64,000 nucleotides of DNA from Escherichia coli (GTDB taxonomy: Bacteria > Pseudomonadota > Gammaproteobacteria > Enterobacterales > Enterobacteriaceae): assembly GCF_044324785.1 (NCBI RefSeq), contig NZ_CP172127.1; one strand, 5' to 3'. Under the pieces are notes generated by a model that saw only the letters and a program-made list of their open reading frames with translations, was not told the origin of the DNA and did not search any database. Made by a program: the position numbers and the translations under genes. Position 1 is the first letter of the stretch. The number at the start of each line of letters is the position of its first letter. This document shows positions 1 to 63,337 of the stretch, one piece after another.

Positions 1-272
1 AGTAAGAGGGAGAAAATTAACGGTCAGTCCGCACGCTATAACCAAATTGTTCAGCTAAGAAAGAAAACCAGAGATGCTAATCGAAGGGTGAACACAACGG
101 CATTGTTATGTTTATTTATATAGTTAGTTTTATAGCTAAAATTGAAATTATAAAAATAAATAATGAATTAGCAGGAGCATCAACAGTAATATCTTAATCT
201 CTGGTCGATTTATGTAAAACCGACCAGTATTATCGATAAATTATCGTCTGACTTATTTTGCTTCGATAAAGC

Positions 273-617
273 TTACACCGCAGCCACAATCTTAATTTCA
301 ACTTTATACTTCGGGTTCATCAAACCCGCTTGTACCGTGCAGCGCACCGGCGCATGACCCGCGACAACCCAGGCATCCCACGCTTTATTCATCGCCGCGA
401 AGTCGTTTTTATCGGCCAGGAAAATGGTGGCATCCAGAATGCTCGATTTATTGCTGCCCTGTTTTTCCAGCACGGCGTCAATCTGCGCCAGCGTGTTGGC
501 GGTTTGCTCAAAGGCATCGGCGTCGAGGTTTTCCGGTACACCAGTGTAGTAGAGCGTGTTGTTGTGGATTACTACATCAGACCAGCGGGCTTCAGCATCG
601 ATACGAACGATAGTCAT
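273..617 (-). CDS. yoaB: RidA/YjgF-family protein YoaB
   Basis: Track ORF 273..665 trimmed to the tandem ATG at 615-620; product begins MTIVRIDAEAR (114 aa). Confidence 0.85.
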   Translation of the reverse strand: MTIVRIDAEARWSDVVIHNNTLYYTGVPENLDADAFEQTANTLAQIDAVLEKQGSNKSSILDATIFLADKNDFAAMNKAWDAWVVAGHAPVRCTVQAGLMNPKYKVEIKIVAAV

Positions 618-3450: not shown

Positions 3451-4032
3451 ATGGCGGTTCAAAAGAATGTTATCAAAGGCATACTGGCAGGTACGTTTGC
3501 GCTAATGCTGAGCGGTTGTGTCACTGTGCCGGACGCCATTAAAGGCAGCAGTCCCACGCCGCAACAAGATTTAGTTCGGGTGATGAGTGCGCCGCAGCTG
3601 TACGTTGGTCAGGAGGCTCGCTTTGGCGGCAAAGTGGTTGCGGTACAAAACCAGCAAGGGAAAACCCGCCTGGAAATTGCTACCGTACCGCTGGACAGCG
3701 GTGCCAGACCGACGCTGGGAGAACCTTCTCGCGGGCGCATTTATGCCGATGTGAATGGTTTTCTTGATCCGGTCGATTTCCGTGGGCAGCTGGTGACAGT
3801 TGTCGGGCCAATCACCGGTACGGTTGACGGAAAAATCGGCAACACGCCCTATAAATTTATGGTGATGCAGGCAACAGGTTACAAACGTTGGCATTTAACC
3901 CAGCAGGTGATTATGCCGCCTCAGCCGATTGATCCATGGTTTTATGGCGGTCGTGGCTGGCCCTATGGCTACGGCGGATGGGGCTGGTATAATCCCGGCC
4001 CTGCGAGAGTACAAACAGTTGTAACTGAATAA
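3451..4032 (+). CDS. yeaY: Slp-family outer-membrane lipoprotein YeaY
   Basis: 193 aa; signal peptide ending in lipobox LSGC. Confidence 0.85.
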
Positions 4033-10960: not shown

Positions 10961-11165
10961 GAGTCATCTCCTGGGCATAAAAGCCCGTCTCTGGCTTTTG
11001 CCAGTTGTAATTATTTGCAGGGTAATGAGTTGTATGTTGTGTTTAACAAATTGATTATTTGCATGTTACATAAATTAAACAATTAAGAATACGGAAAGCC
11101 ATAAAACACGAAACGGAAACAATAAAAGGTGAAATGACGCAGGTTATTAACTGCAAAGAACGAAT

Positions 11166-22347: not shown

Positions 22348-23823
22348 TTAAATATGATGAATAATCACTTTGTTGCCCCCATCGCTTTTCGCTTCGCGTA
22401 AGGCTTTATCTGCTTCCGTCATGACAAGCGAGATATTACGTGTGTCACCCGTTGAAAAAACCGTGCCAATACTGATGGTCATTTGCTCAGGAACATCATA
22501 TCTGTTACTAAAGCCGGTCAGGAGTTCGACATTTTTACGCATACGATCCGCAATGATTTTTGCCTGGGCACTATTGAGTTCGGTAAATAGCAAGCCAAAC
22601 ACCTCACCCTCCAGTCGCGCTAAAATATCATCGGGGCGGATGCTTTGCTGGATAATATCGACAATTGAAACCAGCACTTTATCACCCACACGATGTCCCC
22701 ATTGGGCATTGATGCGTTTGAACTGATTAATATCAACCAGCATGACACAGAAGTCCTTAACAACAGGTCGCGACAATAATGACTCTACGCTGTTGAAAAA
22801 GTAGCGCCGATTATAAATATTGGTCAGCACATCATGAACTGCCAGTTTGCTGGAGAGTTGCAGTTCCTGAAAAATGTTATAAATCAGAAAAGACACAACA
22901 AACAGTTTACTGGAGACTTCAATCCCGCGACTGATATACCAGATGGTATAATTATACTCATCCAGAGTCAGTAGAAGTAAGTTGCAGCATAGCGATGCCA
23001 GACATAATAATGCTATTAACGGCCATAGTTCGCTGGCTAATCGTGTACGCATGATAATAAAGAACAGTAAAAATGCCCACAGACAAACCAATATTTTTGT
23101 ATAGTTGATTCCCCAGGTCGCAGTATGGTTGTCCGGACAGTAATCGACGACATACAAAGAATAGTCAGCGTTATAACTGCTCAGATTGTGTGCCAGAAGG
23201 GGAAAAACTAAAAAAGGAATCAGCGCCAGCAACAGGATCCCCGTTTTTTTCTTATTGTTGTCAAGGATGTTGTCTTTACCATAACAAAAGAGCGCCAGCG
23301 AGGTTAAACAAATAAAACTGAGTTGGCGGAAAATATAGAAAATAGAAACATCATTCGACTTTGTCTGGATCAGTGTGCTGTCGTTGATTGGTTTATGGAT
23401 AATTACAATGGTTTCAACTAAATAGATAAGGCCACTTAAAAATGCAAGGCTTAAAATGAGTGTTGGTAAAATTTGTTTGTTAGTGAAATATTTCATTAAC
23501 ATGAAAAGAAAAATGACGGCGTTAAGGAAAAACAAAGCCACAACAACCATCAGGTAATTCATCTGTGGGATGAGTTTTACATTCGTGTTTTCGTTATATA
23601 AGGTAGTAATGCAAAATAAAATTAACGTCAGCAATAAACTGAAAATAAAAAAGCCTTGAGCTTTTAATTTTTGTGTACCCATAGAAACCATAAAAAGGAG
23701 AGCAATGTGAGTGCTGGATTTTATTGATGGCAGAGATATATAGTTTTGACCAGGATCAATTTTCGTTAACGATAAAAAATATTTAAAGAATAACCCCAGG
23801 GAAACACGTGTTGACCGAATCAT
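22348..23823 (-). CDS. cdgI: membrane GGDEF-domain protein CdgI (YeaI) with degenerate active site
   Basis: 491 aa; multi-TM N-terminus; GGDEF position reads EGEVF, so probably not a cyclase. Confidence 0.8.
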   Translation of the reverse strand: MIRSTRVSLGLFFKYFLSLTKIDPGQNYISLPSIKSSTHIALLFMVSMGTQKLKAQGFFIFSLLLTLILFCITTLYNENTNVKLIPQMNYLMVVVALFFLNAVIFLFMLMKYFTNKQILPTLILSLAFLSGLIYLVETIVIIHKPINDSTLIQTKSNDVSIFYIFRQLSFICLTSLALFCYGKDNILDNNKKKTGILLLALIPFLVFPLLAHNLSSYNADYSLYVVDYCPDNHTATWGINYTKILVCLWAFLLFFIIMRTRLASELWPLIALLCLASLCCNLLLLTLDEYNYTIWYISRGIEVSSKLFVVSFLIYNIFQELQLSSKLAVHDVLTNIYNRRYFFNSVESLLSRPVVKDFCVMLVDINQFKRINAQWGHRVGDKVLVSIVDIIQQSIRPDDILARLEGEVFGLLFTELNSAQAKIIADRMRKNVELLTGFSNRYDVPEQMTISIGTVFSTGDTRNISLVMTEADKALREAKSDGGNKVIIHHI

Positions 23824-23969
23824 TTTTCCGAATGATTGTTTTCTGGAACTAAATTGTGTAAAGGTTATGCTGTCATATTTAAAGCGATTGTAAGCTAATG
23901 TATGTAATAAATGAGATAATTTACAGTGAGCTAAAAATCAGCCAGGCGATAATGACCCGGCTGATAGTT

Positions 23970-63139: not shown

Positions 63140-63337
63140 GTAATTTCCAGTAAATTTCGTCAATGATCACAATTCCAGAATTATATTTTACTTCTGCATA
63201 ACATTACGTTTTTTATTCTTTTTATTCACCCACATCGCAAACGTATTCACTTTATATGCACTTTAAATGCATATGGTTTGGTTATAACTCCTTGATTTCC
63301 AGTTAGCCTCCGCCGTTTATGCACTTTTATCACTGGC

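Follow-up and report, generated by a model that had tools for sequence, protein, structure and literature searches.

The yoaB–yoaC spacer of Escherichia coli: a yoaB 3′ untranslated region ending at a conserved stem-loop beside AT-rich DNA upstream of yoaC

Location and composition of the segment

The segment described here is positions 1–272 of a 64 000-nt stretch of Escherichia coli DNA (NZ_CP172127.1), referred to below as the window. A first-pass annotation, made from the letters and their open reading frames, had placed it downstream of yoaB, and this is correct: yoaB is on the minus strand, its protein is 100% identical to the K-12 counterpart, and yoaA and tsaB are the further neighbours beyond it. 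The check proposed at that time, extension to the left, was carried out in annotated genomes and identifies the flanking locus as yoaC (99 a.a., DUF1889, on the same strand as yoaB), whose ATG is 150 bp to the left of position 1. The segment is therefore the yoaB-proximal two thirds of the yoaB–yoaC spacer (272 bp of the 421 bp found in E. coli, according to the annotated records of Rb-50, K-12 MG1655 and CFT073). The first 700 bases of the window are matched in 5424 out of 5426 complete E. coli genomes, at 95–99.6% identity and with a median of one copy per genome. The features that define the setting are as follows.

273–617, minus strand: yoaB coding sequence (RidA/RutC family, 114 a.a.; stop codon at 273–275), given as context and outside the finding itself
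1–196, minus strand: far-upstream DNA of yoaC, at a distance of 150 to 345 bp from its ATG
90–200, no strand assigned: AT-rich core (23% GC) with little conservation, which one lineage does without

The strong AT-richness reported for the segment is real (32.4% GC, versus 49.8% for the whole 64-kb window) but uneven: GC content is 43% at positions 1–100 and 20% at 101–200. Positions 107–216 (21.8% GC) are the lowest-GC 110-mer within the 64 kb, and 110-nt stretches as low in GC as 90–199 make up 0.036% of the total. Stop codons do occur in every frame, as had been noted (five to nine per frame in all six frames, the longest open run being 40 codons), and no gene can be called; the spacer also carries no annotated gene in K-12, Rb-50 or CFT073.

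The 3′ end of yoaB

The inverted repeat CTGGTCG...CGACCAG seen in the first-pass annotation lies exactly at 201–227, and the stem extends to 11 pairs. The point missed there is that this hairpin belongs to the end of the yoaB transcript. Two features are needed here.

197–272, minus strand: yoaB 3′ untranslated region (3′UTR) of 76 nt, starting directly behind the stop codon and running to the RNA 3′ end mapped by Term-seq
201–227, minus strand: conserved stem-loop with 11 pairs (one of them G.U) and a 5-nt loop; the RNA 3′ end lies 4 nt beyond it, and no U-tract follows

The Term-seq data are those of Adams et al. 2021 (PMC7815308, supplementary file 1), in which an RNA 3′ end at K-12 position 1893787 (plus strand) is listed as 'orphan', with 6545 reads in LB at OD 0.4, 1585 in LB at OD 2.0 and 1225 in M63 glucose. 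This position maps to window position 197 on the minus strand, 76 nt beyond the end of the yoaB stop codon and 4 nt past the base at which the pairing of the stem ends; the stem itself begins 45 nt past the stop codon. The end was classed as 'orphan' only because its distance of 76 nt from the yoaB stop exceeds the 50-nt cutoff used for 'primary' ends. On the yoaB-sense (minus) strand the hairpin folds at −18.5 kcal/mol (z = −5.2; none of 200 shuffled sequences was as good), and on the plus strand at −13.9 kcal/mol (z = −3.3); the plus-strand fold is weaker, as a pair that is G.U in the sense RNA becomes a C/A mismatch there. The whole 76-nt 3′UTR has a folding energy of −21.4 kcal/mol (z = −4.6); its principal structure is the terminal hairpin. 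Positions 272–197 of the minus strand are the 3′UTR of yoaB, ended by a conserved hairpin.

The same dataset (PMC7815308) shows the yoaB 3′ end peaking in exponential LB, and the end at the yoaC terminator (1894498) higher in stationary phase and in minimal medium. As growth conditions change, one end becomes more abundant where the other becomes less so, which is consistent with separate transcription units.

Conservation of the stem-loop

We surveyed the spacer using one genome per species. Among the 23 species with yoaC, yoaB adjoins yoaC in Escherichia only, where the spacers are 271–470 bp long. In the spacer alignment the stem is retained in all six Escherichia lineages despite their diverged flanks: the two arms are CTGGTCGGTTT/AAATCGACCAG in E. 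coli, CTGACCGATT/AATCGGTCAG in Escherichia sp. MOD1-EC7003 (locus L003), CTGGCCG/CGGCCAG in L004, CTGGCCG/TGGCCAG in L005 and CTGGTCGATT/AATCGACCAG in E. albertii. Each lineage's hairpin folds at −12 to −18 kcal/mol, and the stem has been kept in MOD1-EC7003 even though ∼150 bp right beside it were deleted. Paired cells amount to 93% of the stem alignment, versus 16–48% when the partner is slid by one to three columns. Two pairs covary, both partners having changed, one from G-C to A-U and the other from U-A to C-G (three lineages, with U.G as an intermediate); the covariation score was reached by 10 out of 500 shuffles, and as there are only eight sequences we take it as supportive, not conclusive. 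The wobble pairs can form on the yoaB-sense strand alone, which argues for an RNA element and against a protein-bound DNA palindrome.

Formation of the yoaB 3′ end

What follows the stem does not look like an intrinsic terminator. The 8 nt after it are AGAGAUUA in this window (two U) and AGAGAAUA in K-12 (one U), so the U-tract of 7–8 nt expected after the G+C-rich stem-loop of an intrinsic terminator is lacking in E. coli, which has one or two U in the first 8 nt. A terminator scan called no intrinsic-terminator-like site in E. coli, L004 or E. albertii (L006). The 3′ ends of intrinsic terminators usually lie about 7–9 nt after the stem, and the 4 nt seen here are nearer than expected. These observations make a canonical Rho-independent terminator of yoaB unlikely, despite a stable stem-loop 45 nt past the stop with a precise 3′ end, the absence of the site from a table of Rho-terminated regions, and a partial U-tract after the stem in the sister lineages L004, L005 and L007. 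The sequences there (UGUUUU or UGUUUA) indicate that a weak intrinsic terminator is possible in those three lineages, perhaps with a residual activity in E. coli.

Given the missing U-tract, the most likely mechanism is that transcription runs past the hairpin, ends through Rho and is followed by trimming. RNA polymerase would continue beyond the hairpin into AT-rich, G-poor DNA that is not translated; transcription would end diffusely there, probably via Rho; and 3′-to-5′ exonucleases (PNPase and RNase II) would trim the RNA back to the stem, which would shield the yoaB message. The stem-loop at 227–201 would in this way set the steady-state 3′ end of yoaB mRNA at 197, and the arrangement would keep yoaB and yoaC as separate transcription units. 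A class of this kind was described by Dar and Sorek 2018 (NAR 46:6797; PMC6061677): Rho-terminated E. coli mRNAs that end precisely just past stable stem-loops without uridine tracts, show a mild enrichment of C over G further downstream, and are trimmed to the stem by PNPase and RNase II. By analogy, the yoaB hairpin fits this class of protective stem-loops. The 196 nt downstream contain 37 C and 25 G on the sense strand (C/G = 1.48), a mild bias at a low absolute C content. Dependence of the yoaB end on Rho is unsupported by the table of Rho-termination regions in PMC7815308 (supplementary file 2), which has no entry here, a result that low yoaB expression or coverage could have produced by masking one.

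An Escherichia islet between yoaB and yoaH

The contexts of YoaB orthologues reveal how the spacer is placed. Only 0–11 bp lie between yoaB and yoaH, a convergent pair, in Salmonella, Enterobacter, Klebsiella and Kosakonia. In K-12 the two convergent genes are separated by an insert of 840 bp (37% GC), made up of the 421-bp spacer, yoaC (44% GC) and a further spacer of 120 bp that holds a bidirectional terminator. The yoaB–yoaH junction of Kluyvera and Yokenella is occupied by a different gene, of 350 a.a. Since yoaB and yoaH abut in the first four genera and the other two carry another gene there, positions 1–272 are the left arm of an Escherichia-specific islet. An origin of the hairpin ancestral to yoaB itself is rejected, because yoaB has no spacer following it in four other genera; judging from these gene contexts, the hairpin would have come with the islet or evolved inside it. 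Searches found no phage relatives of the islet and no flanking repeats. A plasmid origin was also considered and rejected: the four 'plasmid' matches are large E. coli records (0.42–4.9 Mb) with 96–98% identity, the same as chromosomes.

LysR-type regulators upstream of yoaC

Published ChIP-seq data place the LysR-type regulator YhaJ on this DNA. With YhaJ-FLAG in the uropathogenic strain CFT073, peaks span 2045235..2045664 and 2045249..2045656 (Connolly 2019, PMC6765310 SI Table S4), with centres at 2045445 and 2045463 and PS scores of 7.22 and 2.29. A peak at yoaC is also present in EHEC (centres 2570803 and 2570798; PS 10.44 and 21.14; PMC6765310 Table S3, where the name reads 'yooC'), in the fourth row of the table, after yhhW, ybiJ and yqjF. 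The peaks thus come from two pathotypes and four replicates, and the projection onto the window uses the CFT073 coordinates (locus L026) only. YhaJ occupies the segment in vivo. The two features concerned are listed below.

193–211, no strand assigned: YhaJ ChIP-seq peak centres of the CFT073 replicates, projected onto the window; they fall on top of the hairpin
130–145, plus strand: T-N11-A motif assigned to YhaJ by the ChIP authors, TTATAGATAAAATTGA in K-12, CFT073 and EHEC and TTATAGCTAAAATTGA in the window

Relative to the yoaC ATG, the peak centres are 342–360 bp upstream and the assigned motif is 279–294 bp upstream. In both strains 65–66 bp separate the motif from the peak centre, a distance that does not exceed 12 bp for the best YhaJ sites. 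The YhaJ sites listed in the ChIP paper imply a consensus of TCAA-N5-TTGA, to which the assigned motif has two mismatches, and such matches occur at chance frequency. The window allele (TTATAGCTAAAATTGA) further alters an A found in every other YhaJ site listed, and the exact 49-mer carrying it is found in at least 226 complete genomes. The spacer contains no copy of the published exact YhaJ box, TCA-N7-TGA, and TCAA-N5-TTGA has no match near the peak centre, the best matches in the spacer carrying two mismatches, at chance level. The putative assignment of the YhaJ motif to 130–145 is accordingly a weak one.

That the CFT073 peak centres (window positions 193 and 211) fall on the hairpin and not on the assigned motif raises another explanation, in which the inverted repeat at 201–227 would act as double-stranded DNA, recognized as a palindromic operator by some dimeric protein, perhaps YhaJ, and not as an RNA hairpin. 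The repeat, however, bears no resemblance to TCAA-N5-TTGA, its symmetrical double changes and G.U-type asymmetry are those expected of RNA pairing and not of a palindrome contacted by protein, and an RNA 3′ end lies 4 nt past it on the strand that pairs best. We consider the operator very unlikely and continue to regard the repeat as the end of the yoaB message.

Sites of LysR-type regulators usually lie at about −65/−35 of the regulated promoter. In the ChIP paper (PMC6765310) yoaC is called a 'known regulated gene' of YhaJ, and the main text of the two likely source papers for this statement does not mention yoaC. A second LysR-type regulator, YeiE, is reported to bind upstream of RNA polymerase at yoaC and to activate it (Gao et al. 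2018, PMC6237786). The AT-rich remainder of the segment is upstream regulatory or spacer DNA of yoaC, and YhaJ bound there would act on yoaC.

Put together, positions 1–272 are probably what these lines of evidence suggest, and we hold this reading with good confidence: the yoaB 3′UTR ending at a conserved stem-loop, together with the YhaJ-bound AT-rich upstream DNA of yoaC, both within an Escherichia islet.

A possible role for H-NS

The first-pass annotation offered two alternatives for the segment. One, the edge of a neighbouring locus, holds, given that yoaC starts 150 bp outside the window; the other, a regulatory region silenced by an H-NS-type protein, has its support at the level of sequence only. 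The site in question is the following.

233–242, plus strand: exact 10/10 match to the H-NS motif tCGATAAATT, a candidate site that overlaps the E. coli-specific palindrome TTATCGATAA (230–239)

This motif is a high-affinity H-NS motif, and H-NS prefers acquired DNA of low GC content (Lang et al. 2007, PMC2094087). The match at 233–242 is the sole exact one in the 64 kb, where matches with one mismatch occur at only about twice the chance expectation, and it is exact or has one mismatch in most Escherichia lineages. H-NS may accordingly be proposed to nucleate at 233–242, to spread over the AT-rich core and to silence yoaC or spurious promoters. The proposal gains from the neighbourhood of the lowest-GC segment of the 64 kb, from the uniqueness of the exact motif in the window and its general retention across Escherichia, and from the nature of the segment, a lineage-specific low-GC insertion of the type favoured by H-NS (PMC2094087). 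However, at only about 110–180 bp the AT-rich tract offers little room for a silencing filament, chance can produce a 10-mer match in DNA this rich in A and T, and a literature search for yoaC together with H-NS met only the YhaJ study. The yoaC 3′ end, moreover, is readily detected in three growth conditions, which indicates that yoaC is not silent. We regard silencing of this kind as conceivable but doubtful, and H-NS binding at the site, which would be compatible with our main explanation, as an equally tentative suggestion.

The two proteins could also be combined in a counter-silencing scheme, which would differ from classical LysR activation: H-NS would nucleate at 233–242 and coat the arm, and YhaJ, in response to quinone-like compounds, would remove or reshape the H-NS coat and so open the yoaC promoter ∼200 bp away. 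We think this scheme rather improbable. If it were true, YhaJ, a conserved core regulator, would have taken over the control of a recently acquired islet with a single gene, in DNA that also specifies, as RNA, the hairpin at the end of the yoaB message.

The yoaC promoter and constraint on the AT-rich core

The first-pass annotation had also foreseen that extension might reveal simply the leader of a flanking gene. This is not what was found, as the conserved DNA preceding yoaC, ∼90 bp before the ATG across genera and ∼165 bp across Escherichia, is entirely outside the window. In the coordinates of locus L001, a TATAAT (3931–3926), the inverted repeat CCTGAATGTCAACAGG (3966–3951) and the block shared across genera all lie below 4001. 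The conserved region, a predicted yoaC promoter, thus lies to the left of position 1; a promoter may also be located inside positions 1–272. A sigma-70 promoter scan gave matches at or below chance.

Constraint differs sharply between the two parts of the spacer: comparing K-12 with four non-coli Escherichia lineages, identity is 47–78% inside the window, versus 85–93% in the yoaC-proximal 130 bp. Within the core (about 90–200), identity among Escherichia species is 47–72%. In MOD1-EC7003 (L003) the AT-rich core is wholly absent while the hairpin and the promoter-proximal block are present, and in Buttiauxella, Citrobacter, Lelliottia and Kosakonia, where yoaC is located elsewhere, only the ∼90 bp before its ATG are conserved. 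The poor conservation together with the deletion in MOD1-EC7003 suggests that the AT-rich core may be without function.

In its full form, this reading takes the core (about 90–200) as a functionless remnant of horizontal acquisition, with only the hairpin and the outside yoaC promoter under selection and with opportunistic YhaJ binding. The identity of 47–72%, against 85–93% for the yoaC-proximal 130 bp, points in this direction, and so do the loss of the core from MOD1-EC7003 with retention of both hairpin and promoter, the restriction of conservation in other genera to just the ∼90 bp upstream of yoaC, a YhaJ motif at chance level, and the insertion of Tn6330 and IS1 between yoaB and yoaC tolerated in strain PT62 (PMC9045152). 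But the YhaJ peak recurs reproducibly in both pathotypes and stands in the fourth row of the EHEC table, yoaC has been described as a known YhaJ-regulated gene (PMC6765310), and the segment is present in 5424 out of 5426 E. coli genomes. We treat a core devoid of function as a possibility to be entertained, and retain the reading of the core as YhaJ-bound upstream DNA of yoaC. The segment is an ordinary intergenic region, the AT-rich part of which is weakly constrained.

Other candidates in the spacer

A pair of palindromes with the sequence TTATCGATAA (one at 230–239, the other 26–35 nt before the yoaC ATG) was tried as looping operators and rejected: the pair is broken in CFT073 and unconserved in other Escherichia species.

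An unannotated small gene or a small RNA in the core was weighed as well. A 29-a.a. hydrophobic ORF is present on the plus strand (108–197), with a promoter-like hexamer pair on the same strand at 115–142. ORFs rich in I, F, K and N, however, arise by chance in AT-rich DNA, and promoter-like matches are at chance frequency; the ORF has no Shine–Dalgarno sequence recognizable by eye, its stop codon differs in K-12, and MOD1-EC7003 has lost this poorly conserved segment. There is no Term-seq 3′ end on the plus strand in the spacer, and Rfam 15 searched with relaxed thresholds gave a best E-value of 0.29 or worse, far below gathering scores. Such a gene or RNA is highly improbable, and the core remains upstream DNA of yoaC in our reading.

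Significance of the locus

For annotation, the analysis assigns an 'orphan' Term-seq 3′ end to yoaB, which thereby gains a defined 76-nt 3′UTR, and it groups yoaC and the AT-rich arm into a small Escherichia-specific islet at a junction that holds other cargo in Kluyvera and Yokenella. The islet status helps explain the odd regulation of yoaC, with a LysR-type regulator bound far upstream. The locus is also a concrete place in which to look for H-NS/LysR interplay on a very small piece of acquired DNA. As yoaC has a reported phenotype, sensitivity to boric acid, and no known function (PMC11502571), a map of its control region is of some practical use. Beyond annotation, the importance of the locus is little.

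Comparison with known systems

The yoaB hairpin resembles the protective stem-loops of Dar and Sorek in being stable, in having a precise 3′ end directly after it, in lacking a U-tract and in the mild excess of C over G beyond; it differs in that Rho action and exonuclease trimming at yoaB are deduced and in that the site is missing from the Rho-region table of Adams et al. 2021. Unlike a REP element, the hairpin sequence is single copy per genome.

Like the regions of the YhaJ regulon (yqjF, ybiJ, yhaK and yhhW; Palevsky 2016, Connolly 2019), the yoaC spacer is occupied by YhaJ in vivo and has a T-N11-A-type sequence nearby. Its motif, however, is degenerate compared with the best YhaJ sites (TAGA-N5-TTGA, with TAGC in this strain) and 65 bp off the peak centre, and, in contrast to other YhaJ targets, it is ∼280 bp from the ATG instead of beside the promoter.

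With regard to H-NS, the segment looks like the nucleation sites in acquired DNA reported by Lang et al. 2007, having an exact consensus beside an AT-rich tract in lineage-specific low-GC DNA; unlike those sites, the tract of the yoaC arm is short and yoaC is expressed, and the likeness is one of sequence alone. No integrase, repeats or mobile-element relatives were found for the islet as a whole; its closest counterparts are the small lineage-specific islets between convergent core genes, which it resembles in carrying a single small gene together with a promoter and a terminator for it.

Promoter and terminator elements around yoaC

The spacer between yoaB and yoaC extends to the left of window position 1, and the features below are given in the coordinates of L001, an E. 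coli locus covering this side.

3852-3970: yoaC-proximal block, 85-93% conserved within Escherichia
3931-3926: perfect TATAAT, inside the block
3966-3951: inverted repeat CCTGAATGTCAACAGG, inside the block

Between genera, conservation in this block is limited to CTTTGAT ... GGTNCATA ... GGTTAATTTTAAGGATAAGA, a pattern suggesting that yoaC has a second promoter, older and nearer the ATG. Within yoaC and on its other side, outside the window, 3' ends are listed by the Term-seq study (Adams et al. 2021; PMC7815308) at the following K-12 positions.

1894457 (-) and 1894498 (+): 3' ends on both strands, between yoaC and yoaH
1894397 (-): Rho-dependent antisense end, listed within yoaC

The two 3' ends between yoaC and yoaH, one per strand, lie on either side of a single hairpin, GGACGCTTTTAATCACATATAAAAAGCGTCC, which is therefore a bidirectional terminator common to both genes.

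Start of yoaB and other regions of low GC content

The mechanical call for yoaB differs from the annotated gene:

273-665 (window), - strand: yoaB open reading frame, GTG start, 130 a.a.

The annotated protein has 114 a.a. (start at window 617), and this RefSeq start agrees with the orthologues from other genera (114 a.a.). The next-lowest GC contents in the 64 kb (26-27% per 110 nt) are found at window 23404-23513, 23831-23940, 63179-63288 and 11028-11137.

Variation and insertions in the spacer

At window 130-145, to which the YhaJ motif was assigned (PMC6765310), the source strain carries the allele TTATAGCTAAAATTGA, which changes the A that all other listed YhaJ sites have at this place in the half-site. 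At least 226 complete genomes, among them that of the E. coli type strain DSM 30083, contain the exact 49-mer with this allele, and a strain-specific difference in YhaJ binding is possible. In Escherichia sp. MOD1-EC7003 the spacer (L003 2227-2500) measures just 271 bp. It lacks some 150 bp equivalent to window ∼40-195, the assigned motif included, yet retains the yoaC-proximal block and the hairpin of window 201-227 in full.

The published isolate PT62 has Tn6330 (ISApl1-mcr-1) and IS1 between yoaB and yoaC (PMC9045152), so transposons do target the AT-rich spacer in the wild. In 27 of the 5424 matching genomes, no one location accounts for 80% or more of the 700-bp query; these genomes may carry insertions in the spacer like those of PT62.

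The yoaB/yoaH junction in other genera

In Kluyvera and Yokenella a gene other than yoaC occupies the place that yoaC has in Escherichia:

L030 1881-2933 and L032 1880-2932 (loci of Kluyvera and Yokenella), opposite strand: 350-a.a. gene at the yoaB/yoaH junction

This gene has a GC content of 57-59% and a faint match to DUF7716, and a G+C-rich hairpin lies after yoaB, ahead of the gene, in both loci. The convergent yoaB/yoaH junction appears to be a repeatedly used insertion point.
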